DNA from: a virus
Taxonomy: Duplodnaviria; Caudoviricetes
IMG/VR virus record: IMGVR_UViG_3300042888_002988
Coordinates: 64,001-128,000 of that record
Length of the DNA: 64,000 nucleotides
Strand: one strand, 5' to 3'
Part shown: positions 2,513 to 33,450 of the stretch, in pieces
How the letters are laid out: the number at the start of each line of letters is the position of its first letter
Position numbering within the stretch: the stretch's first letter is position 1
Notes under the pieces: generated by a model
What the model was told of the DNA's origin: nothing
Databases searched by the model: none
Seen by the model: the letters and a program-made list of their open reading frames with translations, nothing else
Translations under genes and position numbers: made by a program

Positions 2513-2526
2513 ACTGAGCACTACTG

Positions 2527-2559: not shown

Positions 2560-2571
2560 CCTTTCCAAAGC

Positions 2572-8521: not shown

Positions 8522-8559
8522 TCGCCAACGGCCGGCGTCGGGTGTAGATTCGCCGCATG
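8522..8559 (+). promoter_or_regulatory. Sigma70-like promoter, leaderless geometry
   Basis: TCGCCA-N17-TAGATT-N6-ATG(8557). Confidence 0.5.
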
Positions 8560-9708
8560 ACGACAATCCCGACGACCGGCCCGGAAGCCATCCTGGCCTA
8601 CCTGCAGTCCATGGACATCGACGCCTTGGAGCAAGAGCAGCGCGCCGCAATCGCTTCCGGCAGCAAGACCAAGCGCAGCCGGGCGGTGCGCCTGCTCAAC
8701 GCCGTCCAGGGCCTGCGGGTCAACGAGCTGACGCCGGCCGACCTGATGCTCAATTCGGTACCGGTGATTCCGCCGAAGTTCCGACCGTTCTCCGTCACTG
8801 GCAACACGTTCCTCCCGGGCGACTCGAACGAGGTGTATCGCGACCTGCTGGAGTATCGCCGCCTCTATCAGGACACCGAGAAGTCGATGGGCAAGGACGG
8901 CGCGTCCGAGGCCTACATGGACCTGGCGCGCGCAACCAGGGCTGCCTACGGCTACGGCGACAGCCCGAACCCCAAGACGCGGGCGCGGCAAGTGAAGGGG
9001 TTCTTCAAAATGGTTACCGGCACCAATCCCAAGACGTCCTTCTACCAGCAGAAGATGCTGTCCAAGCCGGTGGACAGCGTCGGCCGCGGCGTCATCGTGC
9101 CTGACGCCGACCTGGGCATGGATGACGTCGGGCTGCCCGAGGAAATGGCGTGGAAGCTGTTCGGCAACTACGTCCAGCGCAGCCTGGTTCGCTCCGGCAT
9201 GCCGGCCGCCGCTGCGCTGAAGCACCTGACAGAGCGCACGCCAATGGCCCGCAAGGCTCTGGACTACGAGATGTCCACCGAACTCGACAAGAACGGGCGC
9301 ATGGTCCCGCGCCGGCCCGTGGTGATCACCCGGTCGCCCGCATGGCACCGCACCAACACGATCGGCCAGCGTGCCCGCATTGTCGACGGCGACGCGATCC
9401 GCGTGAACACCTTCATCACTGAGGGTGCCAACGCGGACTTCGACGGCGACACGATGTCGGTTCACGTCCCGACCACCGACGAGGCGGTCAAGGATGTCAG
9501 GGAAAAAATGATGGCTTCCAGAATGCTGTGGTCGATCAAGGACCGCAGCAAGACGATGGCCAACCCCAAGCACGAGCAGATCTTGGGCCTCAGCATGGGC
9601 CAGCTGCCGGGAGGCAAGCGGCACAAGTTCGGGAACGACGACGACGCCATGGCCGCCATCGAGCGCGGCGAAGTGGACCTGAATGACGATATCGAAATCA
9701 CCAAATGA
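8557..9708 (+). CDS. rpoC: Phage multi-subunit RNA polymerase beta-prime, catalytic fragment
   Basis: TGPEAILAYL, NSVPVIPPKFRP, LSKPVDSVGRGVIVP, GLPEEMAWKLF, PVVITRSPAWHR and NADFDGDTMSVHVP (Mg-binding DFDGD within 9430-9450) match beta-prime conserved regions; lacks the N-terminal Zn domain and the C-terminal half. Confidence 0.95.
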   Translation: MTTIPTTGPEAILAYLQSMDIDALEQEQRAAIASGSKTKRSRAVRLLNAVQGLRVNELTPADLMLNSVPVIPPKFRPFSVTGNTFLPGDSNEVYRDLLEYRRLYQDTEKSMGKDGASEAYMDLARATRAAYGYGDSPNPKTRARQVKGFFKMVTGTNPKTSFYQQKMLSKPVDSVGRGVIVPDADLGMDDVGLPEEMAWKLFGNYVQRSLVRSGMPAAAALKHLTERTPMARKALDYEMSTELDKNGRMVPRRPVVITRSPAWHRTNTIGQRARIVDGDAIRVNTFITEGANADFDGDTMSVHVPTTDEAVKDVREKMMASRMLWSIKDRSKTMANPKHEQILGLSMGQLPGGKRHKFGNDDDAMAAIERGEVDLNDDIEITK

Positions 9709-10445
9709 GCCGATTACCTAATAAAAAAATCACCACCACCATCCCAGGCGTGAAATTCTGGCACAAGATGCCGCTCAACGACGGAACTTTCACGGACGGT
9801 GATAAAGACGTATTAGATTCATGCCAAGACCATTTGTGGTCGAGCTTGAATCTAAAGGGCAGCACTGTGTTGGACGCAGGCTGCTGGGACGGAGGGTTCT
9901 CGTTCTTGGCGGAGAAAGCCGGCGCAACACGGGTGGTGTCTATGGACAGGGCCGATACCAGAGGTGGAATTCCTGGGACGTCTGGTTATCACTTCCTGCA
10001 CGCCCATTACGCCAGCAAGTGCGAATACCTTGATCACAACATTTACACTTGCCACGAGGTGTTGCGCGAGCGGGAGTTCGATGTGGTCTTGGGGTATGGC
10101 ATTCTCTACCATATGAGCGATCCGCTACTATCGTTGCGCAACCTGTTTCGAGTGTGCGATAAACAGATCGTGTTCGAGGGAGTTTGGTATCGAAGCCAGA
10201 CACCACTGCTACACTTCAAGCTGTCAAAAAATATCCGCGGTGCTAAATCGGACAAATCGTTCGTGTATGCGCCGTCGATCGGATTCATGAAGGATGTGGC
10301 GGCGATCTACGGCTTCAAGCTTGCAGGCACACATTATGGTGCGCGGCGACAATCAGATAATAAATACATCCGCGGGTCATTGCTGTTCGAACGCTTCAGC
10401 TCTGCCGAGCAGGTGACGATACCCGACCGAGTGTTCCCCGTTTAA
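9705..10445 (+). CDS. Class I SAM-dependent methyltransferase (CmoB/DUF1698-like)
   Basis: VLDAGCWDGGFS (motif I), VVSMD, FDVVLGYGILYHMSDP; ATGA overlap with the RNAP fragment. Confidence 0.8.
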   Translation: MSRLPNKKITTTIPGVKFWHKMPLNDGTFTDGDKDVLDSCQDHLWSSLNLKGSTVLDAGCWDGGFSFLAEKAGATRVVSMDRADTRGGIPGTSGYHFLHAHYASKCEYLDHNIYTCHEVLREREFDVVLGYGILYHMSDPLLSLRNLFRVCDKQIVFEGVWYRSQTPLLHFKLSKNIRGAKSDKSFVYAPSIGFMKDVAAIYGFKLAGTHYGARRQSDNKYIRGSLLFERFSSAEQVTIPDRVFPV

Positions 10446-10741
10446 TGTACTACAGCCCAGCGCGCGAGGAACTACACGAATATGAATCAGCAACCCATAC
10501 CCACATGCCCATCGCAAGACTTTCCACCAAGCCATGGTGGCGCGGTATCGCCCCAGGTGATACCGTCCACTATTCGACCCAGCACGGCAGCCCAGGTAAA
10601 GGCCGGGTCGTCATGAGTCTGCCGACCCACGTCGTGCTCAACATCGGCGGCCGGCATGGCACACCCAAGCTCGTCGACGAGAACAACTACATGAGCCACA
10701 AGTCGATGCCGACGCCTAAGCCCCGAAAGAAGAAGTCATGA
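10445..10741 (+). CDS. Small basic phage protein
   Basis: GDTVHY...GKGRVVM...HVVLNIGGRHGTPKLVD, an SH3-like beta pattern; coupled to neighbours. Confidence 0.65.
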   Translation: MYYSPAREELHEYESATHTHMPIARLSTKPWWRGIAPGDTVHYSTQHGSPGKGRVVMSLPTHVVLNIGGRHGTPKLVDENNYMSHKSMPTPKPRKKKS

Positions 10742-10935
10742 GACCTACGTCTAACCCTATGAAAACCATCCTGCGAGTCTTACTGAAGCTGATCAAGTGG
10801 CCCGTCAGGTCTGCTTGTGTCATCCGCCGCCGGGCTTATGACTTGCTGGGCATCCGTAACGGCCGTGGCGTGCACATCCTCACGGTCAACGGGCAGCCTC
10901 TTGGATTCACAAGCTCACCCCCGCCGCGCCCATGA
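10738..10935 (+). CDS. Small hypothetical protein
   Basis: ATGA overlaps on both sides; alternative start at 10759. Confidence 0.5.
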   Translation: MRPTSNPMKTILRVLLKLIKWPVRSACVIRRRAYDLLGIRNGRGVHILTVNGQPLGFTSSPPPRP

Positions 10936-11195
10936 GGCGGAGAGGATTCCTGAAAGGCCTGATCGGCGGCATTGTCGCCGGTCCGGCCGCCTTGCAAGCG
11001 ATCGTTACCCAAGCTGCTCCGGTTGCCGTCGTGGCCCCGATCCCCGTGGAGGCCGCCGTGGTCTCGACCGTCGCCCAGCTGGACATCCGTGCCATCCTGA
11101 CGGCGAACATGCTGCGTGACATCCAATACGAAGAGGACAGACTTTTCCTTGAGCGCGTAGGCGCTATGACCCAACACCACTATGAACCGTCGTAA
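10932..11195 (+). CDS. Small protein with twin-arginine (Tat)-like signal
   Basis: MRRRGFLKGLIGGIVAGPAALQA matches RRxFLK followed by a hydrophobic stretch. Confidence 0.65.
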   Translation: MRRRGFLKGLIGGIVAGPAALQAIVTQAAPVAVVAPIPVEAAVVSTVAQLDIRAILTANMLRDIQYEEDRLFLERVGAMTQHHYEPS

Positions 11196-11820
11196 TTTCA
11201 TCCAAACCGTCGGCGCGACCATGTCCGCCTCCCTACTCCCTGTCTCTGGTGCCAACCTGCAGGCGCTGAAGCCGAAGCAGCCCAACATCCCCATGGAGAT
11301 GTATCGCCACTGGCACCCCGGGGTGATCCTCAAGCGCGTCGTTGAGCTGGCGCAAGAACATCCCGACGGCTGGCTGTCAGCCCACAGCTACCGGAAGATT
11401 CAGGGCGGCGACGGTTGGTGCGCCATCAGTGGCGGCTCCAGCACAGCCAGCATGCTGCGGGACATAGGGTCCACGATGGAGGACATTGCTGCCGTCGTAG
11501 GGATCCCAGAGTGCCTCCGCGGCGCCGATTTGTCGCAGATCGATCCGGCGGTGCAGCTGCACCACATCACCCGCGGACAGAGCATCCACGAGCACGTCTA
11601 CCCAGGCGAGACGCATATCTACTGGACTGTCGGCGGCCCATTCCTCGTGCTCTGCTACGTCCTACCTGACAAAAGTCGATTCATCTTCAAGGTGGGCGAG
11701 CGCGGAGATGACCAGCACAAGCTGCGACTGGATACCCCGGAGCACCAGCTTGAGTGGGTGGACGCCTACCGGGTCGAACTGCGTGGCACCTTGGCCGAAA
11801 TGGCCCTGAACTACCCGTAA
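11182..11820 (+). CDS. Protein with twin-arginine (Tat)-like signal
   Basis: MNRRNFIQTVGATMSASLLPVSGA; His-rich mid region (LHHITRGQSIHEH). Confidence 0.65.
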   Translation: MNRRNFIQTVGATMSASLLPVSGANLQALKPKQPNIPMEMYRHWHPGVILKRVVELAQEHPDGWLSAHSYRKIQGGDGWCAISGGSSTASMLRDIGSTMEDIAAVVGIPECLRGADLSQIDPAVQLHHITRGQSIHEHVYPGETHIYWTVGGPFLVLCYVLPDKSRFIFKVGERGDDQHKLRLDTPEHQLEWVDAYRVELRGTLAEMALNYP

Positions 11821-11881
11821 GTGAAGATTGCCAAACCTGGCGACGCGTTCTACCGTGCGGAGCACTCACTGCAAACCGCAC

Positions 11882-12175
11882 ATGAACAGAACATCACGCC
11901 AACTGCTTTCCAAGACCGCTGAGGTCTTGAACCGCCACGTCGCCGAGGGTAGCCCCCTCGGTAAGGAACTCGCTGCCGGCTCGGAAGTCGGACGAACCAC
12001 GGTAGTTGCCATCAACGAGATCCTCCGCGAAGCCGCGGAAGGCGCCACCCTGGTGTGCGCCACGGAAGTCGATGGCACCCTGCTGGGCTTTGTCGCCCGT
12101 GCCGACGTGACGCTTCCCTCGCTGGTCCCGCCTCCCCCGATGCAGGTCCCGCCGAGCCCCGAAGACGTGAAGTGA
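11882..12175 (+). CDS. Hypothetical protein
   Basis: ATG 11882 after an AC-rich leader. Confidence 0.55.
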   Translation: MNRTSRQLLSKTAEVLNRHVAEGSPLGKELAAGSEVGRTTVVAINEILREAAEGATLVCATEVDGTLLGFVARADVTLPSLVPPPPMQVPPSPEDVK

Positions 12176-12263
12176 AATTTTCCCGCACAGAGTGAGCGGA
12201 AATCCCGATACATTGAGAGGCGCCACAAAACGAGCGTAGAAAGAGGATTATCACACACACTCT

Positions 12264-12296
12264 TCCGGTCCCTTTCACGAGGGGCCGGATTTTTTA
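12264..12296 (+). terminator. Rho-independent terminator
   Basis: TCCGGTCCCT-TTCACG-AGGGGCCGGA followed by T6. Confidence 0.8.
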
Positions 12297-12379
12297 CCTC
12301 CAGCGGAGCGGTGTGTTTCTACTCGACTACGGGGCTGTGTGCATTAAGATACGGGCGTCCTTCACGCGGAACCTGACCT

Positions 12380-13429
12380 ATGCCCACCATCACTTTAGAG
12401 CCCGGCGGCGCACGTCCGCCCACACCCGAGGAACAGGGTTTCATTCGCTCCGCCATTGGCGTGTCTACCCTATACCGTAGTCAGGCCGCTGGAGTTCCCA
12501 CGCCACTCGATCCCGTGCCACAGTCCGTGGGGCAGTGGCTGCGGCGCGAGACTGCGGTTGTCGGGGAGTATCAATGGTACCAGTGGAACGGCACTGCGTG
12601 GGTGTTTGTTCGGCTAGACAATGCATCACCGGGTGGCGGGCCCGAGGTATTGACGCGTGCCGCCAACGCCGCGTATTACGCTTTCGCCGGTCACACATCA
12701 CTGACCGTTACAGGGATCGGCGGCGCGGGGACGCTGACCCTGGCGCCGGATGGCGCAGGATGGACTGACGGAGATTTTACGATCGGTTTGGAGCATTACG
12801 GAAGTTCGCGCTACAGATTTAGGCTCGAGAATCTCGCATTGGATGTCGCCGGTTACTCCGTGGAATTGACTAGCGGATCTCCGTCGCCAGTCGGACTGGA
12901 ATTCACGCTGAGCAACGGGACAGGAAGGGTAGTTGTCAGCGGCAACGTAAACGCCAACGTCATTCAAATCTTCCCGCCCGGCAGCGACGTCGGGCAACTG
13001 CTCTACGTTTCCAACGAAGTTGGTCCCGGCTCCTGGTATCAGTGGGACGGCACTACGTGGTATTACGTCCGCACCGATGACGAGGTGCCGACTGTCGGCC
13101 CCTACAAGCAAAAGGTATTGGAGGCCCCATGGAATTCCGCCTCCCCTTGCATCCTCAGTCGCGCGCGAGGTGAGTCGCAAGTCGGCACGACAAGCTCCAA
13201 TGTTTTACTGGGACTTCCAACCGACATGCTGGACGGGCAAACTCTGCTGCTGGACATCATCGCGTCCGCCGCGATAACGCTGAATTTCACCGGCTATCAG
13301 ATGCCTGCCGCGGTGTCCGGTCTCTTGCCGCTGTCCATCGCCTCCAATCGCGCTGTTCGCGTCACCATCCTACGGATTGGTGGACGTTTCTGGGTGCGCG
13401 GCATTGATGGTCCGATCAACCTCACCTAA
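12380..13429 (+). CDS. Putative virion fibre/collar-type structural protein
   Basis: Beta-rich, Gly/Thr/Ser-rich; duplicated W-Y-Q-W-(N/D)-G-T-x-W motif typical of fibre segments. Confidence 0.55.
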   Translation: MPTITLEPGGARPPTPEEQGFIRSAIGVSTLYRSQAAGVPTPLDPVPQSVGQWLRRETAVVGEYQWYQWNGTAWVFVRLDNASPGGGPEVLTRAANAAYYAFAGHTSLTVTGIGGAGTLTLAPDGAGWTDGDFTIGLEHYGSSRYRFRLENLALDVAGYSVELTSGSPSPVGLEFTLSNGTGRVVVSGNVNANVIQIFPPGSDVGQLLYVSNEVGPGSWYQWDGTTWYYVRTDDEVPTVGPYKQKVLEAPWNSASPCILSRARGESQVGTTSSNVLLGLPTDMLDGQTLLLDIIASAAITLNFTGYQMPAAVSGLLPLSIASNRAVRVTILRIGGRFWVRGIDGPINLT

Positions 13430-13440
13430 TCACGACCACC

Positions 13441-16272
13441 GTGCGACCGTCCGCCGTATACGCCAGGAACATGCTGATGCTGCACAAGCAGGCAGCCTTT
13501 GAAGGCTGCTCCGAAGAGCAGCTGCGATGCCTCGGCGACGCCTTCGGGCTCGGCCCTTACGCCAAGCCCTACGTGCCGAATTACCGTGAGTGCCCCAAGT
13601 GCCACGAGAAAAAGGCGCGGGTAAAAGAGGTCCACGCCGACACCGGGATGGATGACTTTGAGCTGAAGTGCGACGCCTGCGGTGCGTGGAGCGACATTGA
13701 GCCAGAGAAGTCGGCCTTCCTTGGGGCCGGCAAGCTGATGGGCAACGGCAAGGTTGTAAAAGACTTCATCCGTCATATGCGCGGGATGGATATCCCCATT
13801 AACCGGGTGCGTCCTGCGAATCCCGCAGCTATTCTGGCCAACACCAGCCACCTACCGGTCGGCGCGTCGCAGCACAGCTTCTCCAAGGTGTATCCTGGTT
13901 TGCGTAGGACAACCGACCTACCAATGAACACCAGCAGTTTGGATGTCGGCAAAGGGGTGCCTAGAGTGAATCTACAGATGCGCGATGGTAAATTCTTCCA
14001 GACACCTGGGGTGCAAGGCGGCACTAACCCGTCACCGATCGCGTCGATGTTCCACGAGGGAGGGCACGCCATGCACCAGCGCGAACTGCTGCGCGTCGCC
14101 AAGCAATCGCCCGAGCGCTTTGGCGGTGTGCCGCACTGGAAAACACTGGAGTATGGCAATCATTTCATCCCCGGGCAACCGGGGTTGTCGACCGTGCTGG
14201 ACGAGATCGGCGCCAACAACGCCGCCTTGCAGTTTGGGCAGCAGGCGGGGGCGACACCGGAGGCTATGAACTTCTATCGAGCAGCCAGACAGAACTCGTT
14301 CAATACATACAAGGGTGCGGTTGAAAACACCCCGCTGGCTCAGCAGGTGATGCAGCGCGGCGGCAAGGGCTACACCGATGACCTCAGAACCGTGAATCTC
14401 TACGAAGGGTTCGGTAAGTCAGCGAGCGCTGAGCTCGTCTTGCGAAAGAAGGCCTCAATCGCACCGAAGGACCTACGCTACTGGGACGATGTCAACGATG
14501 CGGTGGCTAAAAAAATCAGCGCCCTGACTCCCGAGGAGCAAGCTCAAGCTGCCGCTGGGCAGGTGTCGGTGATCGGCTCCTGTGGGCACCCGATACGCCA
14601 GGGCAACAACGGCGTGACCGTCGAGATCGGCAAGGAGTGCTTTACCTGCATGCAGGCCAACGCCCCGCTGTTGAAGTCCGGCAGCATACTGGAGCTGTTC
14701 GGAGGCGTCGAGCTCGAGAAATACGCGGTGGTCAAGCAGGATGCTGACACCGGCAAATGGATCCTGTGGGCCCGGGACGGCAAACGCAAGCTGGGCACGC
14801 ATGATACGCCGGATGAGGCCTACAAGCAGGAGTATGCGATCCAGAAAGCACAGGAGCGCAAGAAGTCTGCTTCGGCAGAAGAGACAGCGCAGGATCTCAT
14901 GAAGCGCCCGTGCTGCGGCTCAGGCTGCGATAACTGCCCCTACTACCCGCGCTACCAGAAGGGCAACACCGAGGTGCGCGCCGAATTCAAGAAGTCAGCC
15001 TCGTCGCGATCCGCAGAGATCCAGCAGCTGCTGAACGATTCCGACATTCCGGCTGACGTCTATTTCTACACGGACGGTAAGGGGCGCGCCACCGTATGCC
15101 TCGGCGACTGGCACGAAGATCCTGTGCCCGACATCGCCATACAGTTCGGGCGTGCCAACTGGGATCAGTGGGAAGATCCGGATGACACCGAGATCGGCAA
15201 GCCATCGTGGGCAACCGCTACCCTCAGCAAGCGCCAGGAGAAGGCTGCAGCCATCGCCGCCCACATCCGCCGAGCCCGCAACGTCACCCACACTGACCCC
15301 ACGCCGGCTCAGGCCCACGAGGGTAACTATCGCAAGGGTGAGTTCACCATGCACGGCATGACCATCAAGCTTGAAAATCCCAAGGGCACCACGCGCCGCG
15401 GTTACAAGGACGGGAAGGAGATCTGGGCGCGCGTCATGCAAGCCGACTACGGCTACTTCAAAGGCACTGAAGCGGTGGACGGCGATGCCATTGACTGTTT
15501 CGTCGGCCCGAATCCAGACAGCGAGATGGTGGTGGCGATCGACCAATACCGGGGCGATACCTTCGACGAGACCAAGTTTGTCCTGGGGGTCGACTCCCAG
15601 GACGAGGGCTCCAAACTTTACCTGGCACACTACCCGAAGGGATGGCGGCTCGGCCCCGTCTCGACCACTACCGTGCAGCAGCTCAAGGCGTGGCTGAAGG
15701 CCGGCAAGCACAAGGTGCCGTTCAAGGGGCAGCTGGTGAAAGCGGCTTCGATTAGCGGGCTGCTGCGTTCTGCGCTCTCCGCTCGGTCCTTGAAGCCATT
15801 CGCCACCAACGCGCCCATGTCCCGGCGTGTGTTCTTTGACAAGTCCATCAGGAAGGCTGCGCCGATGATGTTGCCGGACACCCCCATGGTGCAGGCTGGC
15901 TTCAAGGGGCTCGCCGCTGCCACCAACAAGGATGTCGTGAGCAAGGTAGGCGACACGATCGGCGCTGTCGGGAAGATCGGCCAACCGCACACTCCGCAAG
16001 CATTGCCGAAGATGGTTGCTGCGGGCGGTGCAAATCCGTCTCGAAATTTCACGGACGCAGCAGAGCGCATGATACCCGCAGTGCCCAAAGCTCCCGCAGA
16101 GCTGCCAGGCGTGGCGGCGATGGCCATGCTTCCGGGAACCTACTCACGAAGGTCGTTGCTGCAACGGTTTCTGCTCGCCAGCGCGACCGACGCCAACACG
16201 CTTCCCACGCTGGCTCGGTTTGGAGCTGGCGTAACAAGCGGGGCAGGCAATGTGGCCAATATGCTGGCATGA
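13441..16272 (+). CDS. Modular polyvalent protein: Zn ribbon, HExxH zincin, CCGSGCxNCPY domain, InPase domain; KxA-delimited
   Basis: CPKC..CDAC; HEGGH (14053-14067) with downstream DEIGAN; CCGSGCDNCPY (from 14911); PTPAQAHEGNYRKG...IKLENPKG...DYGYFKGT..VDGDAIDCFVGP...FDETK (about 15250-15747). Start may be ATG 13471. Confidence 0.85.
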   Translation: MRPSAVYARNMLMLHKQAAFEGCSEEQLRCLGDAFGLGPYAKPYVPNYRECPKCHEKKARVKEVHADTGMDDFELKCDACGAWSDIEPEKSAFLGAGKLMGNGKVVKDFIRHMRGMDIPINRVRPANPAAILANTSHLPVGASQHSFSKVYPGLRRTTDLPMNTSSLDVGKGVPRVNLQMRDGKFFQTPGVQGGTNPSPIASMFHEGGHAMHQRELLRVAKQSPERFGGVPHWKTLEYGNHFIPGQPGLSTVLDEIGANNAALQFGQQAGATPEAMNFYRAARQNSFNTYKGAVENTPLAQQVMQRGGKGYTDDLRTVNLYEGFGKSASAELVLRKKASIAPKDLRYWDDVNDAVAKKISALTPEEQAQAAAGQVSVIGSCGHPIRQGNNGVTVEIGKECFTCMQANAPLLKSGSILELFGGVELEKYAVVKQDADTGKWILWARDGKRKLGTHDTPDEAYKQEYAIQKAQERKKSASAEETAQDLMKRPCCGSGCDNCPYYPRYQKGNTEVRAEFKKSASSRSAEIQQLLNDSDIPADVYFYTDGKGRATVCLGDWHEDPVPDIAIQFGRANWDQWEDPDDTEIGKPSWATATLSKRQEKAAAIAAHIRRARNVTHTDPTPAQAHEGNYRKGEFTMHGMTIKLENPKGTTRRGYKDGKEIWARVMQADYGYFKGTEAVDGDAIDCFVGPNPDSEMVVAIDQYRGDTFDETKFVLGVDSQDEGSKLYLAHYPKGWRLGPVSTTTVQQLKAWLKAGKHKVPFKGQLVKAASISGLLRSALSARSLKPFATNAPMSRRVFFDKSIRKAAPMMLPDTPMVQAGFKGLAAATNKDVVSKVGDTIGAVGKIGQPHTPQALPKMVAAGGANPSRNFTDAAERMIPAVPKAPAELPGVAAMAMLPGTYSRRSLLQRFLLASATDANTLPTLARFGAGVTSGAGNVANMLA

Positions 16273-16297
16273 CCTGATCGCCAGGTGCCTGGGTGTA

Positions 16298-16337
16298 TGC
16301 AAGTCCATGACCGCCGGTGTCATAAGGATTTGCTATG
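16298..16337 (+). promoter_or_regulatory. Class A phage promoter-like motif
   Basis: TGCAAG-N17-CATAAG-GATTTGCT-ATG(16335). Confidence 0.7.
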
Positions 16338-16964: not shown

Positions 16965-16972
16965 TCGGAATC

Positions 16973-17014
16973 ACACCGGGCCGGCTGACAACCGGCCCGG
17001 TGTTCACCTTTTTT
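16973..17014 (+). terminator. Rho-independent terminator
   Basis: ACACCGGGCCGG-CTGACAA-CCGGCCCGGTGT, a perfect 12-bp stem, then TCACCTTTTTT. Confidence 0.75.
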
Positions 17015-17020
17015 ACCATC

Positions 17021-17350
17021 ATGGAAAAAGAATACATCAAGGCCATGTTCGGCCAGCACGCCGTCCACGCGGCGTTCAACTACATCGTGCAGGAGTCCGG
17101 CACCAAAGATGAAGACCGTGGTCTCATCGCCGGGAACACCAGCTTCGTTGAGGCCATGAGCTTCGGCGGAGTGAACCACGGTATCCACACGCTCGTGCTG
17201 TGCGACGTCGTCATCCGCCCCAGGCTGGTGATCGCGTCGAGCCACCTGAAGGGATCGGGAGCCAGCGGGCTGTTCAAGGGCATGGCCCTGGCGACGGTCA
17301 AGCCATGGCTTGATCAAGGCAAGATCATCATCAACAATATGCCCGGATGA
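17021..17350 (+). CDS. Hypothetical protein
   Basis: ATG 17021 downstream of the terminator; ATGA coupling to the next gene. Confidence 0.65.
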   Translation: MEKEYIKAMFGQHAVHAAFNYIVQESGTKDEDRGLIAGNTSFVEAMSFGGVNHGIHTLVLCDVVIRPRLVIASSHLKGSGASGLFKGMALATVKPWLDQGKIIINNMPG

Positions 17351-26256: not shown

Positions 26257-26296
26257 TGCAATTTCGGTAGGGTCGGTGTCATAAAGAATTGCTATG
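26257..26296 (+). promoter_or_regulatory. Class A phage promoter-like motif
   Basis: TGCAAT-N17-CATAAA-GAATTGCT-ATG(26294). Confidence 0.7.
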
Positions 26297-26644
26297 GACT
26301 TGGGTATAATACCTTCAGTTCTAACCAACACTAACATCAACAACACCATGAAATCGTTTATCACCAGCATCATCGGAAACACAGTCGGAGCAGTCGGATC
26401 ATTCACCGGAGGCATCATGATGGCGACCGGCATAAATCCCGGTTACGTCGGCGACCAACTGCACCGCGCGGGAAATGAATTCGCCGACGGCATGCACAAG
26501 CAGTCGCAAGCACTCGCAGAGCAGGAGGCCGTCGAGGCCGCCGATCGCGAGGCCAAGCGCCACGAAGAACGCTGCTTGGAGATCGCAATGGCCGCGGCGG
26601 CCGAACAGGCTCGCCACGACAAGGCGACGGGCGTCGCAGCCTGA
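26294..26644 (+). CDS. Hypothetical protein (glycine-rich hydrophobic helix plus coiled coil)
   Basis: Start 26294 or 26348 (after an AC-rich leader); IIGNTVGAVGSFTGGIMMATG then a charged helix. Confidence 0.7.
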   Translation: MDLGIIPSVLTNTNINNTMKSFITSIIGNTVGAVGSFTGGIMMATGINPGYVGDQLHRAGNEFADGMHKQSQALAEQEAVEAADREAKRHEERCLEIAMAAAAEQARHDKATGVAA

Positions 26645-26649
26645 GCAAC

Positions 26650-26699
26650 TCGGACCCTGGGCGTGGAGGCAACTCCGCGCCCAGGTGCTCCGATTTTTT
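26650..26699 (+). terminator. Rho-independent terminator
   Basis: CCTGGGCGTGGAG-GCAA-CTCCGCGCCCAGG extended by TCGGA/TCCGA, then T6. Confidence 0.8.
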
Positions 26700-26701
26700 A
26701 C

Positions 26702-26741
26702 TTGGCGCGCCCATGAAACGATTCGACAGTCCCACTCCATG
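26702..26741 (+). promoter_or_regulatory. Possible sigma70-like promoter, leaderless geometry
   Basis: TTGGCG-N17-GACAGT-N8-ATG(26739); poor -10 match. Confidence 0.35.
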
Positions 26742-27098
26742 GAGGACAGCCACGCGGTAGATATCCTGCTTGAGGTGCTTACCGTATCCGGCGGCCGTCG
26801 CTGCGTGAACTTTCGGCGCGACAATACTTCGACGCTCGATCCGTCAACGAGGCCTCCCGAATGGGGCGACGAAATCACGCAGCACTGGAAGCAGCAGCTC
26901 ACACCCCAGCAGCTCGCTATCTATCACACGGAGCTGCTGCGGCGCGCGGAAGAGTTTCTGAAATTCATGGACGCCAACGTCGGACCCACGGAGGAGTTCC
27001 CCTTGGTGATACAGGCAGAGACGGCAGAGACGATGGAAGTATTTCGCAGTTACCTGCATCGATTGCGGACGCCGGTGAATTTTTTACTCGAAATATGA
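26739..27098 (+). CDS. Hypothetical protein
   Basis: First in-frame ATG after the terminator; MEDSHAVDILLEVLTVSGGRR... Confidence 0.6.
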   Translation: MEDSHAVDILLEVLTVSGGRRCVNFRRDNTSTLDPSTRPPEWGDEITQHWKQQLTPQQLAIYHTELLRRAEEFLKFMDANVGPTEEFPLVIQAETAETMEVFRSYLHRLRTPVNFLLEI

Positions 27099-27102
27099 CG
27101 AC

Positions 27103-27140
27103 TTGCCTCCCGGGTCTAATTCTGGCACAGTCTCCCCATG
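27103..27140 (+). promoter_or_regulatory. Sigma70-like promoter, leaderless geometry
   Basis: TTGCCT-N17-CACAGT-N6-ATG(27138). Confidence 0.5.
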
Positions 27141-27695
27141 GCCGACTCACTCACCACCCTGAAAACCCGTCTCGCTAACCTGCGCCAGGAGCGGAACGAA
27201 ATTGCCTTGATTCAGAAGGAAGCCTTCATGGCTGCCCCTCCGATGCCAGGTGGTGGCGGAATGCCGCCGCAAGGAATGCCCCCAGGCATGGATCCCAGCA
27301 TGATGGGCGGAATGCCTCCGCAGGGTATGCCGCCGGGCATGGATCCCAGCATGATGGGCGGAATGCCTCCGCAGGGTATGCCGCCGGGCATGGACCCCAG
27401 CATGATGGGCGGAATGCCCCCGCAGGGAATGCCTGTGGATCCGGCTACCGGCATGCCGATGGATCCCAACGCAATGGGCGGACAGCCGCAGCCGCCGGCC
27501 TCCCCGCTCACACCGGAAATGCTCGAGGAGCTGATCGGTGTCGTTGAGCAACTCGCGGCTGGTCAGGAGAAATCCGAGCAGGCTTTGCAGCAGATGGCTC
27601 AGCAGCAGGAGGAGATCATGGGGCAATTCGAGCAGATGCAGCAGCAGCTCGCTCAAATGTTCTCAGGTCCGCAGCCGGGCGCAGGAGGTATGTGA
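27138..27695 (+). CDS. Pro/Gly/Met-rich protein with KxA pro-region and C-terminal coiled coil (putative head-associated)
   Basis: IQKEA/FMAAPP then PGM repeats and a Gln/Glu-rich helix. Confidence 0.8.
   Translation: MADSLTTLKTRLANLRQERNEIALIQKEAFMAAPPMPGGGGMPPQGMPPGMDPSMMGGMPPQGMPPGMDPSMMGGMPPQGMPPGMDPSMMGGMPPQGMPVDPATGMPMDPNAMGGQPQPPASPLTPEMLEELIGVVEQLAAGQEKSEQALQQMAQQQEEIMGQFEQMQQQLAQMFSGPQPGAGGM
27255..27434 (+). repeat. Coding tandem repeat, 51-bp unit, about 3.5 copies
   Basis: Unit encodes GGMPPQGMPPGMDPSMM; copies differ by synonymous changes. Confidence 0.95.
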
Positions 27696-27937
27696 TGCCA
27701 GTCCGACTTCGACAACTCGACGGGACGGTGAAAGTCGTCGACAAACTTGAGTCGATCGAGGTGACCGACTCCGAAGGCTTGCTGGCGGTGGTCGTCTTCA
27801 CCAATCGCCGCGACGTCATCCAGGCACTGATCCCGGGTGACCCTATCTTCACAGCTTACTGCCGCGCTCACGGCCTCGGCGCGGCTCGGGTGCATCGCCA
27901 CGAACAGACGCCAGTCAAAACCAATCTCTCCGACTGA
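27692..27937 (+). CDS. Small beta-rich hypothetical protein
   Basis: GTGA overlap; 81 aa. Confidence 0.65.
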   Translation: MMPVRLRQLDGTVKVVDKLESIEVTDSEGLLAVVVFTNRRDVIQALIPGDPIFTAYCRAHGLGAARVHRHEQTPVKTNLSD

Positions 27938-27941
27938 AGCC

Positions 27942-28292
27942 ATGGACGACGAACCTGCAGTCACCAAGCCTACCACCGTGAAGCAACACGTGGACCACTG
28001 GAAGTGGTTGGTCGGCGTGCTCGGTGGTCTGCTGCTCCTCATGGAGGGATTCGGCTGGGTAGAAGGCCGCATCGAGAAACGGGTCGAAGAGCGGGTGCTG
28101 ACCGCCACATCGATCTCCCGCTTGGACAACTACGGTAAGGAATCCAAAACCTGGATGGATGGGCGTATCAACACCCTGACTGCCGAAGTGGACGCACTGC
28201 GTCGGGAACTTGGTATCCTGCGCTTAGACGTGCGAACGAACGCCACGACAATCCGCAGCGCCCCCGAGTCGGCCCCCGCGTCGCCTAAGTGA
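27942..28292 (+). CDS. Single-TM plus coiled-coil protein (lysis-cassette associated)
   Basis: WKWLVGVLGGLLLLMEGFGWV transmembrane helix then heptads; ATG 27942. Confidence 0.65.
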   Translation: MDDEPAVTKPTTVKQHVDHWKWLVGVLGGLLLLMEGFGWVEGRIEKRVEERVLTATSISRLDNYGKESKTWMDGRINTLTAEVDALRRELGILRLDVRTNATTIRSAPESAPASPK

Positions 28293-28333
28293 CCACACTT
28301 GACTGGACCTCCAAAAAATGGCAGGTTAAGGGC

Positions 28334-29035
28334 GTGAGAAGCAAACTCCTAATCATCGGGCTATGCCTAGTCATACCCTGGAGCACCGGGTGCCACACGC
28401 CTCCGCGTGCTGTGCCTGTTGTGCCGGTCGTGACTGCTGCACCGCGGCAGGTCTCCGCCAAGTCACCGCTGAGTGAGGCTCGGGCTGCCACCGTCGAGTC
28501 GAATCGTCGTGTCGATGCCGCCCGCAACAAGGTCGATGTCTCGGTCGGTAATGTCGAACGCTACCGCGACGCCGAGTATGCCGAGCTGCACGCCCTGGTT
28601 ACCCGGGTCAAGGCGAAGGGCTCCATCACGACTGCGGAGCTGGAGGAACTCATCACGCGGGTGCTGGCACAGAAAGGTCAGCTCGACACGCTGCTCGCCC
28701 GCCTCAAGCAGGTGCAGGACGAACTCTACGTGTCGTGGGAGCTGCGCCAGCAGATCGATTCTAAGCTCACCGAGGCCCTAGCCAGGGTCGCCGCAAAGGA
28801 CAGCGAGGCGGACATGCTTCGACAGCAGCTGGCTGACCAGCAGCAGACATCGAAGGCGCTGGAGCAGAATGCCCAGACCAATTTGGAGTCGGCTGTGAAA
28901 TCGCAGTCCGCCGCCGCACACATGAAGGGTCAGCGCGACCTCGTCCTCAAAGTTCTCATCGGGGTATCCATACTCGCCATGCTGTCGCTGATAGGCAACT
29001 ATCTCCAGTTCCGCAGGGGTCTACTACCGTTCTGA
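28334..29035 (+). CDS. Putative unimolecular spanin (lipoprotein signal, coiled coil, C-terminal TM)
   Basis: RSKLLIIGLCLVIPWSTGC lipobox-like signal; long helical region; C-terminal VLIGVSILAMLSLIGNYL TM; next to holin and endolysin. Alternative start 28289. Confidence 0.6.
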   Translation: MRSKLLIIGLCLVIPWSTGCHTPPRAVPVVPVVTAAPRQVSAKSPLSEARAATVESNRRVDAARNKVDVSVGNVERYRDAEYAELHALVTRVKAKGSITTAELEELITRVLAQKGQLDTLLARLKQVQDELYVSWELRQQIDSKLTEALARVAAKDSEADMLRQQLADQQQTSKALEQNAQTNLESAVKSQSAAAHMKGQRDLVLKVLIGVSILAMLSLIGNYLQFRRGLLPF

Positions 29036-29070
29036 TCAAAGCAAACCGCCTACATCAACACACCAATACC

Positions 29071-29421
29071 ATGCAGATAATCAAGACCATCAAAACCAAC
29101 TGGCGCGACGTCGTCATCGGGATCGCCCTCACTCTCGGCTTGGCCCTCGGGGCCGACATCCTGGAGCGCATGGCCACCACCGACGACGGTAAGGTCTGGC
29201 TCACCAACGTCGTCACGTCCCTCCGCGGACTTGCGGCCTTCGCTGGTGCCAACCTTGCGGCTTTCTTTATGATCGCCGTGGCCTGGCCGACGCTGAATCA
29301 ATACAGTAACGATAGCTTCAGCTTCGGCTGGAACTCCCTGAGCAACTCTCAGCGATTCCTAGCCTTCCTCGCTGTTGCCATCGGCTACCTCATTGCCGCC
29401 TCCCTGTGCTTCGCCCCATAA
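29071..29421 (+). CDS. Putative holin (about 3 TM helices)
   Basis: 116 aa with three hydrophobic segments, immediately upstream of the endolysin. Confidence 0.6.
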   Translation: MQIIKTIKTNWRDVVIGIALTLGLALGADILERMATTDDGKVWLTNVVTSLRGLAAFAGANLAAFFMIAVAWPTLNQYSNDSFSFGWNSLSNSQRFLAFLAVAIGYLIAASLCFAP

Positions 29422-29439
29422 CCCGCAAGTATCATCGTC

Positions 29440-30129
29440 ATGAAGTTCCTTGCGCTGATCGTGGCTATGGCATCGTTTCCCACATCGGGAGGCGCTGACG
29501 CGGTGTATATGCGGGCCGAGCCGCTGGCCATCTCCAAGGAAGGCTACAACCTGATCCTGAAGCATGAGGTCGGCGGCGGCGCTTACTACTACTCGCGCTT
29601 CCTGGCTCGGCCCTGCTGGCCGGGAGGCGCGTCTGGCGTTACGATCGGCGTGGGATACGACCTGGGATACAATACCCGCAGCCAGATCGCCGCGGACTGG
29701 AAATCACTGTCCCCGGACATCATCGCTAGGCTGCAGTCCGTGGCTGGCGTGAAGGGCGCGTCAGCGAGTCGTTTGGCTCCCACGCTGCGCTCCATTTCGA
29801 TCCCGTGGGACATCGCAGAGAAAGTCTATCGTGAGCGCACCATTCCCAGGTTCGCTCGTCTCACTGAGGGCGCTTACCGTGGTACCGCCACCATGCACCC
29901 GCACGCCCAGAGTGCCATGCTCTCCTGGGTGTTTAACCGCGGCGAGGGTATCTCCTCGTCGTCGCGTGATACTGAAAAACGCGCCATGCGGTCGGACATC
30001 CCGACACGTGTGAAGCTGTTGCCAGGCCACTTCCGAGCGTCCAAGCGCATCTGGGTGGGTCGCGGGCTTGACGGCTTGCTGCGACGTCGTGAAGATGAGG
30101 CGCGCCTCATCGAATCCATCTGGAACTAA
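29440..30129 (+). CDS. Endolysin, lysozyme fold (GH24/pesticin C-terminal-like) with N-terminal signal
   Basis: LILKHEVG (catalytic Glu), PGGASGVTIGVGYDLG, AMLSWVFNRG, GLLRRREDEA; hydrophobic N-terminus MKFLALIVAMASF. Confidence 0.85.
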   Translation: MKFLALIVAMASFPTSGGADAVYMRAEPLAISKEGYNLILKHEVGGGAYYYSRFLARPCWPGGASGVTIGVGYDLGYNTRSQIAADWKSLSPDIIARLQSVAGVKGASASRLAPTLRSISIPWDIAEKVYRERTIPRFARLTEGAYRGTATMHPHAQSAMLSWVFNRGEGISSSSRDTEKRAMRSDIPTRVKLLPGHFRASKRIWVGRGLDGLLRRREDEARLIESIWN

Positions 30130-30161
30130 TCTTGATCGCATGGTCAGCATCGTCTACCGTC

Positions 30162-30860
30162 ATGGCAACCCCACGTAACACTTCCAAAGCCAAGAAACCG
30201 CACGCAATGTCCTCTGAACAAGTCTCGGAAAGTAACACCCATCACGAGCGTAGGTTTGCGCAAATTGACCGTGATATTTTCAGCGTCAAAACGGACGTCG
30301 GCGTGCTGCAGGCGGACGTTAAAACCCTGGCGTCGGGCCAGGTCGCCCTGCAGGAATCGCAAGACCGGGGGTTCCGCGACGTCAAGGATACGCTAGTTGC
30401 CAAGAGCCAAGAACAACCAAAAGTCAGCGTGGCAATGCTGATATCCATCCTCGGTGTCATGGTGACCGTTGTGGTGGTCGGGGTGGGTGCATTCTGGTCC
30501 GTCGTAGTGCTGCTGGCGGACCCGATCCGCAACGAAGTGCGCGAGCACAAGTTGTCGACGCTCAACAATAACAAGGAGATCGCATTACTGGATGAGCGCG
30601 CCAGACAGATGCAATCGAACCTCGAGATCCGCCTCCGGCAAGTGGAAGACCATGAGCTAACTCGGTACGAACAGCAGGCGGCGCGCATGAGTGAGCTGGC
30701 TGCGACATTGAAGGAGTTTCAAACGCACGCGGTCGAGAATGCGCGGCTGGAGGGACGGCTGACAGCCCTGGAAGAGGTGCGTCGCCTCAACGATCAGCGC
30801 ACATGTGACCGTATCGGAAATCTCGAGAAGCTCCACCAGACACCCGGCGCAACTCCATGA
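30162..30860 (+). CDS. Coiled coil - TM - coiled coil membrane protein
   Basis: Heptad region, VAMLISILGVMVTVVVVGVGAFWSVVVLLA TM, second heptad region; start 30162 or 30207. Confidence 0.7.
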   Translation: MATPRNTSKAKKPHAMSSEQVSESNTHHERRFAQIDRDIFSVKTDVGVLQADVKTLASGQVALQESQDRGFRDVKDTLVAKSQEQPKVSVAMLISILGVMVTVVVVGVGAFWSVVVLLADPIRNEVREHKLSTLNNNKEIALLDERARQMQSNLEIRLRQVEDHELTRYEQQAARMSELAATLKEFQTHAVENARLEGRLTALEEVRRLNDQRTCDRIGNLEKLHQTPGATP

Positions 30861-30898
30861 TTGATCATCGGACTCTTTTCCCTTAGAATACCCTCATG
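30861..30898 (+). promoter_or_regulatory. Sigma70-like promoter, leaderless geometry
   Basis: TTGATC-N17-TAGAAT-N6-ATG(30896). Confidence 0.6.
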
Positions 30899-31177
30899 CA
30901 ATACAACGGCACCGCACAAACGATACAGCTCACTGGCTTGGACCAGGGGCACGAGGTTACGGTCATCATCACCGGGGCCACTGCTATCGTCAACTTGGAG
31001 TTCAAGCACGGCACCGAAGACATCTGGCGTCCGCACCCGAATTTCACCGCCGTGGCAGCTGCCACCGTCAACCTTATGACGTTCCGTATTCTGTCCGGCG
31101 TCATGCGCATCCGTTTCAACACGGTGCCCAGCACCTACGAATTGACGACCGTCTTCAGCGCGGAAGCCTCTTTCTAA
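30896..31177 (+). CDS. Small all-beta protein, possibly a virion accessory
   Basis: 93 aa with alternating hydrophobic pattern; own promoter. Confidence 0.65.
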   Translation: MQYNGTAQTIQLTGLDQGHEVTVIITGATAIVNLEFKHGTEDIWRPHPNFTAVAAATVNLMTFRILSGVMRIRFNTVPSTYELTTVFSAEASF

Positions 31178-31515
31178 GAAAGCGTCCCAGCAGCTCGGAT
31201 CGCATCCTCGGCAGCAACAAGCGCACGCAATGTGCGCCACATGTCCGAGGCCGTCTCGTGCCCCTTCTCGGTTAGGTAGACCTTCGTGACGCGCTTGTCC
31301 CGCTCCGGGAAGTGCTCAACGAGCAGGCCCTGGCTGGCGAGTTTCTGCTTGGCCATCGTCACCGCAGAGGGCTGCGCGCCAGTGGCCTTCGTGATGTCGG
31401 CAACGTGCCAGCCGGCGAGTTGCTTGTTGGCCATCAGCAACAGCATGAGCTGCGGCAGCTTGATGAGCGCGGAGTCGACGATTTCGCTGAGCGTGTCGGT
31501 GTGACGTGTTTCCAT
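31174..31515 (-). CDS. MarR-like winged-helix transcription regulator
   Basis: VADITKATGAQPSAVTMAKQKLASQGLL (HTH) and DKRVTKVYLTEKG (MarR wing); the only credible minus-strand gene. Confidence 0.8.
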   Translation of the reverse strand: METRHTDTLSEIVDSALIKLPQLMLLLMANKQLAGWHVADITKATGAQPSAVTMAKQKLASQGLLVEHFPERDKRVTKVYLTEKGHETASDMWRTLRALVAAEDAIRAAGTLS

Positions 31516-31584
31516 GGGAGTGCGCCCATACTTGCGCGCACAATCCGCACGTAGTCAAGCTTGCTGTGGCGTAACGGATGCACT

Positions 31585-33450
31585 ATGGTGACGCTCATGC
31601 GAGCCGTTGACTTTGCTGTCTCACGAATTTTACCCAGCGACATGCGCCAGGAGACCTATGACCTTGGCAAGAACGGCATGGCGAAGATCATGTCGGACGT
31701 CGCCCTGCGTTACCCGGATCAGTTTCCCCAGATCGTGAAGCAGCTCGGTGACCTGGGCCGCCGCGCCAGCTGGTTGCAGGGTTACACCACCGGCCCCGAC
31801 GACACCAAGGGAGTCGTGGACACGGCCAGCTACTACGCCAAGATGGACGCGGAGCTGGACCGCCTGCGCAAGGACAAGGTCTCTCCGGATGAATTCGAGG
31901 AACGTCGTGCTGAAATCCTGACTCGCTACTCGGACCTGATCGAGCGCGATACTATGACGGCGGCGATGAAGAATCGTAACGCCTTTGCGCTTGCTGTCAG
32001 CAGCGGCGCGCGTGGTAATGCTGCCCATGTCAAAGCCATCCTCTCCACCCCAGGAGTCTTCCAAGACTCAAAAGGACGAACGATTCCTCTCTTTGTTCGG
32101 AATTCCTTTGGTGCCGGTGTGCGACCCGCCGAGACACTTGCTGGCACGTATGGAGCTCGAACCGCGGTTGTCAGCACCAAAAAGGCGACTGCCAAAGGTG
32201 GGGATCTACTGAAGATCATGACGCAGTCCACCCTGAACTACAACGTCACCGGAAAGGACTGTTCTACGACCAACGGGTTGTCCATGGATCCAACGGAAGG
32301 TCAGATCACCGGTCGTGTGCTCGCCCGTGCCGTCGATGACATGCCAGCCGGCACCGTCATCGACCGCCAGACCCTGTCGCGCCTGCGCCGCCTCGGCAAA
32401 CCGGTGCTGGTGCGCAGCCCGATGACCTGCCGCGCCAAGCACGGACTATGCGCTCACTGCGTCGGCGTTCAGGCGGACGGTCACTTCCCGAACATCGGCG
32501 ACTCGGTGGGCGTGACGGCCGCAGCGGCCATCGGCGAGCCCATCGTGCAGGGCGCGCTCAACGTGAAGCACAACGCCGGTATGGCGAAGGGTAAAAAATC
32601 GTTCTCCGGCCTCAACTACATCACGCAGTTCCTCTCGATCCCAGAGGAGTTCAAGGACCGCGCCACCGTGGCCGAAGTCGACGGCACCGTGGACAAGATC
32701 GAGGAGGCACCCCAGGGCGGCACCTACATCACGGTCAACGGCGAGCGCCACTTCGCACTACCCGGGTTCCAGCCGCTGGTGAAAGTGGGGCAGAGCGTTG
32801 AATCCGGCGACGCCCTTTCCGACGGGCTGATCAACCCCGCCGACATCGTGAGGCTGCGTGGGCTCGGCGAGGGCCGGCGTTATTATGCCGACCGCCTGTC
32901 CCAGATGCTGGCCGACTCCGGTCAGAAGCCGGACGCCCGCAACGTGGAAATCCTCACCCGTGCCGCGCTGGACAACTACCTGATCGAGGATCCCGACGAG
33001 GATTCTCCCTGGCTGCCCGACGACATGGTGCGCGAGAGCGAGTTCCTCGATCGCTACAAGCCGCCTGCCGATACCACGGACATGCCGGTGCGCAAGGCGG
33101 CCGGCAAATACCTGCAGGCGCCTGCGCTTCACTACACCGTGGGCACCCGGCTGACACCCAGTATGGCAATCAAGCTCGACGAAGCCGGGGTCACCAACGT
33201 GCCGGTGTCGTCGCAGATCCCATGGTTCCGTCCGGAGATGCAACGCCTGCGGGTGGCCGCTCACGGATCGGACGACTGGATGGCCTCGCTGGGCACCTCG
33301 TATCTATCGTCTCAGATGCGCAGCTCACTGGAGCGCGGCGACGAGACCAACATCGCCGAGAACTACCACTACGGTCCGCGCCTGGCATTCGGAGCTGACG
33401 CAGGCGCTGGAGGGTTCGGGGAGAACATCTCCCGCACTGGGAAATTCTAG
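31585..33450 (+). CDS. rpoC: Phage multi-subunit RNA polymerase beta-prime, C-terminal fragment
   Basis: SSGARG, YGARTAVVST (bridge helix), KDC, VRSPMTCRAKHGLCAHC (Zn site), GDSVGVTAAAAIGEPIVQGALNVKH (trigger loop), VGQSVESGDALSDG. Start uncertain (31561, 31585 or 31597). Confidence 0.93.
   Translation: MVTLMRAVDFAVSRILPSDMRQETYDLGKNGMAKIMSDVALRYPDQFPQIVKQLGDLGRRASWLQGYTTGPDDTKGVVDTASYYAKMDAELDRLRKDKVSPDEFEERRAEILTRYSDLIERDTMTAAMKNRNAFALAVSSGARGNAAHVKAILSTPGVFQDSKGRTIPLFVRNSFGAGVRPAETLAGTYGARTAVVSTKKATAKGGDLLKIMTQSTLNYNVTGKDCSTTNGLSMDPTEGQITGRVLARAVDDMPAGTVIDRQTLSRLRRLGKPVLVRSPMTCRAKHGLCAHCVGVQADGHFPNIGDSVGVTAAAAIGEPIVQGALNVKHNAGMAKGKKSFSGLNYITQFLSIPEEFKDRATVAEVDGTVDKIEEAPQGGTYITVNGERHFALPGFQPLVKVGQSVESGDALSDGLINPADIVRLRGLGEGRRYYADRLSQMLADSGQKPDARNVEILTRAALDNYLIEDPDEDSPWLPDDMVRESEFLDRYKPPADTTDMPVRKAAGKYLQAPALHYTVGTRLTPSMAIKLDEAGVTNVPVSSQIPWFRPEMQRLRVAAHGSDDWMASLGTSYLSSQMRSSLERGDETNIAENYHYGPRLAFGADAGAGGFGENISRTGKF

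Follow-up and report, generated by a model that had tools for sequence, protein, structure and literature searches.

A cell-like phage RNA polymerase core encoded by five scattered genes and its probable origin from a fused beta-beta' gene

Introduction

Multisubunit RNA polymerases (RNAPs) split into several polypeptides and encoded by dispersed genes are already known from phiKZ-like phages, but their origin has been obscure there, as the sequences are too divergent to be compared with cellular enzymes. The phiKZ/AR9-type enzymes consist of four to five polypeptides from dispersed genes, have a break in beta' after the catalytic barrel, and lack alpha and omega; the phiKZ type comes as two paralogous sets, one of which is packaged in virions (PMC7598289, PMC7824862). 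Their sequences have diverged strongly from cellular RNAP, and in place of a sigma factor they have a phage-specific fifth subunit. A second group, mReC (Weinheimer and Aylward 2020), has adjacent and unsplit genes for beta (about 1000-1050 or 1360-1380 residues) and beta' (about 900-1010 residues), often as two sets per contig, in T4-like genomes with a gp23-type capsid protein (PF07068), baseplates, and PF03237 terminases, and was detected by the rule that beta and beta' should each have at least 800 residues (PMC7481178). Here we analyzed a stretch of 64,000 nucleotides (hereafter the window) from the virus record IMGVR_UViG_3300042888_002988 of IMG/VR, a tailed phage of the Caudoviricetes, in which two pieces of a bacterial-type beta' subunit are encoded 21.9 kb apart.

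The nearest cultured relative of this phage turned out to be Salmonella phage Arash (OQ632216), and not one of the phiKZ-like phages, which an earlier note, made from the sequence of the window alone, had mentioned for their split RNAPs. The RNAP of Arash consists of Gp206 (1525 residues, comprising beta and the N-terminal part of beta') and Gp216 (the C-terminal part of beta'), with Gp10 and Gp196 as sigma factors; the Arash paper annotates the RNAP genes only and does not describe the fusion (PMC10585845). The two phages have homologous beta, beta', and sigma at 28-30% identity (E values from 1e-43 to 1e-91), the same break separating the N- from the C-terminal portion of beta', the same beta-beta' joint lacking the zinc-binding domain, and a single RNAP set. 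They differ in that the head module of Arash contains two RNAP open reading frames (ORFs) separated by 5 kb, whereas the phage studied here has five, up to 98 kb apart, and only about 14/227 proteins are detectable by BLAST between them.

A single RNAP set in five reading frames

We consider it highly probable that this phage makes one bacterial-type RNAP core of five polypeptides, namely betaN1, betaN2, betaC carrying the first ~85 residues of beta', beta'N, and beta'C, which would join after translation without alpha, omega, or the zinc-binding domain of beta' and would most likely use the phage's own sigma70-family factor. The same explanation takes the ancestor to have been a fused beta-beta' gene of this phage family. 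The first break would have occurred after the catalytic double-psi barrel of beta', where almost the whole family is broken, and later breaks in this sub-lineage would have fallen inside beta and inside beta' (at residue ~130-175, a variable loop). Other genes would then have been inserted between the pieces, leaving them 13, 60, 22, and 98 kb apart.

The two pieces in the window are both on the plus strand. beta'N (P0001, 383 residues; window 8557-9708, genome 72557-73708) corresponds to beta' residues about 180-560 in E. coli-like numbering and spans the clamp core, the lid/rudder region, DPBB-A, and the catalytic loop NADFDGD. It matches Pfam RNA_pol_Rpb1_2 (7.7e-24, 85 bits for a cut-off of 25), NCBIfam rpoC (2.9e-49, model positions 162-534 of 1147), and bacterial beta' chains in the PDB, with E values down to 1.3e-39. 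As the alignment to these chains runs from about E. coli residue 180 on, beta'N begins downstream of the zinc-binding domain. beta'C (P0002, 617-621 residues; window 31585/31597-33450, genome 95585/95597-97450) matches Arash Gp216 and spans the funnel, the bridge helix, a second Cys cluster, the trigger loop, and the jaw. Its ORF extends over 31561-33450 and opens at the TTG at 31561, but the true start is probably ATG 31597 or ATG 31585: the start of beta'C in the relatives matches the residue of ATG 31597, with GGTGA 7 nt upstream. beta'C scored above the cut-off of Pfam Rpb1_5 (1.1e-10), matched NCBIfam rpoC at positions 557-1069 (2e-51), and was aligned to bacterial beta' residues 612-1099; its alignment with the chain 8i23_D covers GARG, the bridge helix, the C...CxxxxxxCxxC cluster, and IGEP...H, and the His of the trigger loop is present. 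The earlier note had read the domain content of both pieces, the missing zinc-binding domain of the first, and the lack of any beta, alpha, or sigma gene in the window in the same way. The 21.9-kb gap between beta'N and beta'C is syntenic in a 184-kb relative (IMGVR_UViG_3300044971_003665, hereafter G001), with which the phage has 123/227 proteins in common, and is therefore not an assembly artefact. As candidates for an unsplit phage beta', we also inspected phrog_25354, a supposed full-length family that was probably built from bacterial-like sequences and added nothing, and P0239, which was uninformative, with no Rpb1_2 match in its N-terminal 400 residues and a contig of only 5.4 kb.

The phage record has 200,158 bp, of which the window is positions 64001-128000, with a GC (guanine plus cytosine) content of 0.61 and a completeness of 100% as estimated by CheckV. 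Its first 50 bases are found again 181 bp before the end, which indicates a complete, circularly permuted assembly. The earlier note had expected beta and at least a third piece of beta' to lie elsewhere or to be borrowed from the host, and had proposed a search of the rest of the genome. This search found both in the same genome, so that nothing needs to be borrowed; beta is divided over three ORFs and the N terminus of beta' sits on the last of them. With Arash Gp206 as a probe, four places in the genome were matched. betaN1 (genome 195161-196654, plus strand, 497 residues) was aligned to about residues 75-240 of E. coli beta and betaN2 (genome 196651-197313, plus strand, 220 residues), which contains Rpb2_3, to about residues 420-575. 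The third ORF, betaC with the N-terminal remnant of beta' (genome 10294-12207, plus strand, 637 residues), contains Rpb2_6. The matches to Rpb2_6 (1.5e-46) and Rpb2_3 (3.6e-7) are both above the cut-offs, and the N terminus of beta, for which PF04563 gave no match, was found instead by BLAST to Arash Gp206 and by a phmmer search of the PDB. Two active-site Lys residues of beta are kept, GDK and GAK in the phage standing opposite GDK and GNK in bacteria. Around the circle, the gaps between consecutive pieces amount to about 0, 13, 60, 22, and 98 kb, and the complete 200-kb genome holds one RNAP gene set only.

Searches in six frames over the complete genome gave no PF01000 or PF01192 match for alpha and omega at E <= 10, with the controls matched in 14/14 genomes. 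A sigma70-family ORF (genome 141112-141840, plus strand, 242 residues) has a Sigma70_r3 match above the curated cut-off and a C-terminal helix-turn-helix (HTH), matches the SigB/F/G subfamily at 1.9e-8, and is homologous to Arash Gp10.

betaC has a neighbor that is also worth recording. A 718-residue protein whose N-terminal domain is a GNAT acetyltransferase (1.7e-7) is encoded at genome 8138-10294 (L007:8138-10294), 53.7 kb before the window; it ends at the base where betaC begins and adjoins betaC in G001 as well.

The N terminus of beta' on the C-terminal polypeptide of beta

The part of betaC that corresponds to bacterial beta runs to about residue 540 and leaves ~97 residues, of which the last ~85 form the beta' N-terminal remnant. 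We aligned the joint region of 62 family members with bacterial beta' N termini taken from loci of metagenome-assembled genomes (MAGs) by profile-profile comparison. The joint region including the start of beta'N was matched with a probability of 99.4% (E 2e-21), and the betaC tail alone with 95.3% (E 2.4e-8) and a score of 54, where the 20 column-shuffled controls scored no higher than 20. A hidden Markov model of seven bacterial sequences matched the betaC tail only weakly (E 5.5 for this phage and 2.9e-4 for Arash), which made the profile-profile comparison necessary. Apart from the missing four-Cys zinc-binding domain, the tail and bacterial beta' residues about 6-123 are colinear: the segment from GGLFD to (R/Q)W..I.L has 6-14 residues and no Cys in 62/62 family members, in comparison with ~42 residues and four Cys in bacteria. 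No free N-terminal piece of beta' was detected genome-wide in six frames with PF04997 (Rpb1_1). Judging from these alignments, beta' is in three parts in this phage, the first being borne on the C-terminal polypeptide of beta. The third piece of beta' that the earlier note had called for does exist, not as a free gene but as the C-terminal tail of the betaC ORF with the zinc-binding domain deleted.

We also modelled the interface between betaC residues 430-637 and beta'N, which obtained a score of 0.79, the best of three controls having 0.00. This mark was reached by 58/80 solved complexes and by 2/110 mismatched pairs, and the runs had a contact agreement of at least 96% and a partner pLDDT (predicted local distance difference test) of at least 83. 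The tightest modelled contacts are between beta'N residues 63-71 (VPVIPPKFRP) and betaC residues 592-603. However, because bacterial RNAP has been solved, the passing model may reflect mere likeness to the solved bacterial enzyme.

Fused relatives and the direction of change

Our survey of the family covered 80 IMG/VR loci with 10-kb flanks. Among the more distant relatives, with 33-38% identity (n=70), 69/70 have a joint ORF for beta and beta'N, about 1450-1620 residues long, and beta is fused to beta'N likewise in Arash gp206. beta'C is usually no more than ~5 kb downstream in these compact relatives, and in a few of them lies further off, upstream (L090), or beyond the fetched flank. In two loci (L121:5673-11885 and L139:6719-12931), beta, beta'N, and beta'C are all contained in one ORF of 2070 residues, which makes a complete cell-like RNAP core in a single chain that lacks the zinc-binding domain. 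Members that are 44-81% identical to the phage have their genes progressively separated. The beta' N-terminal segment joined to betaC without the zinc-binding domain and the separate beta'C ORF are features of the Arash-like family that this phage has as well; it retains the joint on betaC, and the polypeptide is cut again downstream of the joint.

In a quick IQ-TREE search of beta'N with 94 rows, the phage family forms one clade apart from the sampled bacteria, with a Shimodaira-Hasegawa-like approximate likelihood ratio (SH-aLRT) of 100. The forms with separate ORFs also make up one clade (SH-aLRT 100), nested among the fused forms. One member within this clade (L082) still has betaC and beta'N fused. 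The nested position of the split clade, this intermediate, and the beta' segment stranded on betaC indicate that fusion came first, followed by fission and dispersal. The five scattered genes are thus derived from a fused beta-beta' gene. Some observations weigh against the explanation as a whole. The conserved His of bacterial beta (in the block ...KMHARSTG...) aligns with a Ser in this phage; the sigma-like protein is recognized by its matches to region 3 and to the HTH, with region 2 weak (E 0.035); and the tree comes from a quick search with one protein piece and a bacterial outgroup from few phyla.

Metagenomic relatives of beta'N and beta'C number in the hundreds. A word-indexed search of metagenomes gave 138 clusters of beta'N relatives, and beta'C had 4897 matches at E <= 1e-3, the best 150 of which all have E < 1e-97. 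These best 150 of 4897 all look like members of this phage family, in that the alignment either starts at the first residue of the relative or is interrupted by large in-frame inserts. In our literature searches, which covered a limited collection, no paper describing the fused or the split family was found.

Conservation of the pieces and inteins in the family

Fragmented genes of a host-like enzyme could be the decaying remains of a captured host rpoBC, or could be rejoined by trans-splicing inteins or recoding; inteins are indeed rife in the RNAP genes of this family. We regard this as extremely unlikely. The five RNAP ORFs are 76-83% identical to those of G001, where the median of shared proteins is 64%, and rank 3rd-9th by identity among the 78 shared proteins, near the top of the proteome. 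Their ratios of nonsynonymous to synonymous substitution (dN/dS) against G001 are 0.13-0.21, with 0.21 for beta'N and 0.13 for beta'C, similar to those of the capsid and terminase genes, and indicate purifying selection. By these measures, the pieces are intact and not decaying remnants. No bacterial homologue above about 30% identity was found, and the pieces show no preference for actinobacterial beta', which together exclude a recent capture from a host. A position within a recent host rpoC clade with signs of decay, the outcome that the earlier note had set against its own reading, is thus not what these comparisons gave. The pieces also lie 13-98 kb apart. Split-intein trans-splicing had been a candidate in its own right, but beta'N and beta'C can be aligned with bacterial beta' almost up to their termini, leaving no room for intein halves.

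As a separate observation, beta'N of G001 (L158:750-3884, genome 178250-181384) has 1044 residues, with an in-frame insert of ~630 residues right after the catalytic-loop region. The insert matches LAGLIDADG_3 (1.6e-6) and Intein_splicing (3.7e-5) and is thus an intein beside the RNAP active site; the beta'N copy in the window is intein-free. In G001, betaN2 has an N-terminal extension without a recognizable homing-endonuclease domain, which thus gives no sign that a mobile endonuclease split beta. Most beta'C relatives (P0123-P0272) carry one or two in-frame inserts of about 150-800 residues at two fixed sites, query residues about 205-218 in the bridge helix and about 333-337 in the trigger loop, which look like intein hot spots, and several have C-terminal extensions of 300-800 residues.

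Comparison with other split, fused, and cell-like polymerases

A parallel in gene organization is the phiKZ/AR9 type, from whose lineage the splits might have been inherited. The phiKZ-type virion RNAP has beta' in two and beta in three polypeptides, which equals the number of pieces found here; its beta' is broken at the same place, behind the catalytic barrel, and neither enzyme has alpha or omega (PMC7598289, PMC7824862). Nevertheless, the enzyme scores about 130-140 bits with Firmicutes rpoC in comparison with 65 bits with an AR9-like phage, phiKZ itself being undetected. It is cell-like, as exemplified by the Rpb2_6 match given above, comes as one set, and is accompanied by a sigma70-family gene, whereas phiKZ-like phages are without a sigma factor; it also carries beta' residues 1 to about 125 on the C-terminal polypeptide of beta. 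Since the extra breaks arose within the Arash-like family from a fused ancestor, they are convergent with the phiKZ-type breaks, and we find descent from the phiKZ/AR9 lineage very unlikely.

The earlier note had placed the phage in or near mReC. Both are uncultured tailed phages with RNAP subunits that are easily recognized by bacterial COG and Pfam profiles, and some of the hypersaline-lake samples that yielded mReC contigs also yielded several relatives. The architecture does not bear this placement out: in the Arash-like family, beta and beta'N are joined, beta'C stands apart, and there is a single set, in contrast to the unsplit, adjacent mReC genes, and the pieces of 497, 220, 637, 383, and ~617 residues would be excluded by the rule of at least 800 residues. 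PF07068 has no match in the genome, and neither the capsid ORF nor the terminase ORF has a Pfam match. Membership of mReC is accordingly an unlikely alternative in our assessment, although not as remote as descent from phiKZ.

Cellular RNAPs offer partial parallels to the break and to the joint. Cyanobacterial and plastid RpoC1 (gamma) and RpoC2 are separated in the same linker after the catalytic domain, the linker that is also broken in the phiKZ type; beta'N was aligned to gamma residues 188-552 of 624, and residue 33 of beta'C stands opposite residue 12 of RpoC2. The breaks are nonetheless independent and a few tens of residues apart, and the cyanobacterial genes are adjacent in an operon and keep the zinc-binding domain. 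The Helicobacter and Wolbachia fusions (NCBIfam PRK09603 and PRK14844) have the C terminus of beta joined to the N terminus of beta', as in the inferred ancestor and in the two single-chain loci, and both models are matched by the phage RNAP pieces. They differ in having about 2850-2890 residues with the zinc-binding domain, alpha, and omega, whereas the phage forms have about 2070 residues without all three.

Unlike the phiKZ-type enzymes, the sequences of this family are easily aligned to bacterial RNAP, and its living relatives include enzymes of one, two, three, four, and five polypeptides, so that the order of fusion, zinc-domain loss, fission, and dispersal can be read directly. The series marks positions in beta and beta' that tolerate a cut, and shows that a cell-like core can do without alpha, omega, and the zinc-binding domain. 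This could be of use for studies of RNAP assembly and for the engineering of split polymerases. More tentatively, we propose that these enzymes constitute a large undescribed RNAP family distinct from both the phiKZ type and mReC. Its ancestor would have been a single- or two-chain fusion without the zinc-binding domain, alpha, and omega, from which a stepwise series leads from a chain of 2070 residues to five scattered genes, including a breakpoint in beta' that leaves the first clamp strands on beta; the enzymes would be sigma-dependent and delivered with the virion. In its full extent, we regard this proposal as possible but less likely than not.

Possible packaging in the virion

The earlier note had raised the possibility of a virion-packaged RNAP, and the homologues in Arash, which dominate its virion proteome, make it plausible (PMC10585845). 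In the virion proteomics of Arash, Gp206 had 3516 spectra, the most of any protein, Gp216 had 1210, and the sigma factor Gp10 had 467 (PMC10585845). These RNAP polypeptides are thus top or near-top virion proteins, above the capsid protein. In Arash and in most relatives, the RNAP genes have the portal gene on one side and the capsid gene on the other, and in this phage beta'C lies upstream of the head module and adjoins both this module and a block encoding large proteins of the InPase-type, head-packaged kind. Within the head module, an ORF resembling prohead proteases (window 44255-45697, plus strand) matches the PHROG head maturation protease (2.3e-8), and the major capsid protein (window 48034-49017, plus strand) matches the PHROG major head protein (2.5e-7) and Arash capsid protein Gp226 by BLAST (6.9e-26). 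On this comparative evidence, we put the chance that the RNAP is packaged in the virion, where it could serve early, host-independent transcription, at roughly even or a little better. If so, this enzyme would add a second, independent example of a multisubunit RNAP that is delivered by way of a phage tail.

Alternatively, the enzyme may be functional but unpackaged, being made after infection for middle and late genes, while the early genes would be read by the host RNAP, which the phage sigma factor may redirect. The single RNAP set fits such a program, whereas two distinct enzymes, virion and non-virion, are needed in phiKZ-like phages (PMC7598289), and the phage sigma factor could equally serve the host RNAP, as in group 2 jumbo phages (PMC7824862). 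The virion proteome of Arash may also be contaminated: the preparation contained 116 proteins including metabolic enzymes, and the authors allow for a carry-over of abundant intracellular proteins (PMC10585845). Furthermore, Arash is only ~28-30% identical to this phage. This alternative is a serious possibility, if somewhat less probable, in view of the abundance of the RNAP polypeptides in Arash virions and the position of the genes.

Neighboring genes and other observations

The block between the beta' genes (window 9705-31515, plus strand, 21.9 kb) is syntenic with G001 and fast-evolving. It encodes an S-adenosylmethionine (SAM) methyltransferase (window 9705-10445, plus strand), a 943-residue protein (window 13441-16272, plus strand) with an InPase domain (PF18823, 1.7e-39) typical of head-packaged polyvalent proteins, proteins of 969 and 804 residues without a family, and small ORFs. 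The InPase domain is of a kind that polyvalent proteins of the DarB-like or minor-head type contain. One relative (P0054, 532 residues) has this same domain fused directly to beta'N, hinting at a link between pyrophosphatase and polymerase. Immediately upstream of beta'C, the minus strand at window 31174-31515 has an ORF of 113 residues with weak winged-helix matches (MarR/SarA-like), which is kept in G001 and may be a local regulator.

The protein best conserved between this phage and Arash, above the RNAP, is one of 675 residues without a Pfam family, encoded just before the window (genome 60937-62964, L155:937-2964); it is 35.7% identical to Gp141, a virion protein of Arash with 836 spectra. 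At window 2277-4118, a protein of 613 residues resembles adenylosuccinate synthetase (Pfam 5.9e-29, NCBIfam PurA 5e-26, and PurZ 2.6e-7, all far below the curated cut-offs), and a PurZ-like role in modified DNA bases is possible only. The next closest relative after G001 is a 116-kb contig (L025, JBBAQX010000005.1), with 65% identity in beta'N. It was binned with a Lysinibacter (Microbacteriaceae) MAG, probably as a mis-binned phage contig, and gives a weak hint of an actinobacterial host. DNA of the phage itself is seen again in lake and freshwater metagenomes of several studies. A further protein of 261 residues (window 5525-6310) has an N-terminal acyl-carrier-protein domain (NCBIfam 3.7e-11), which is unusual for a phage.

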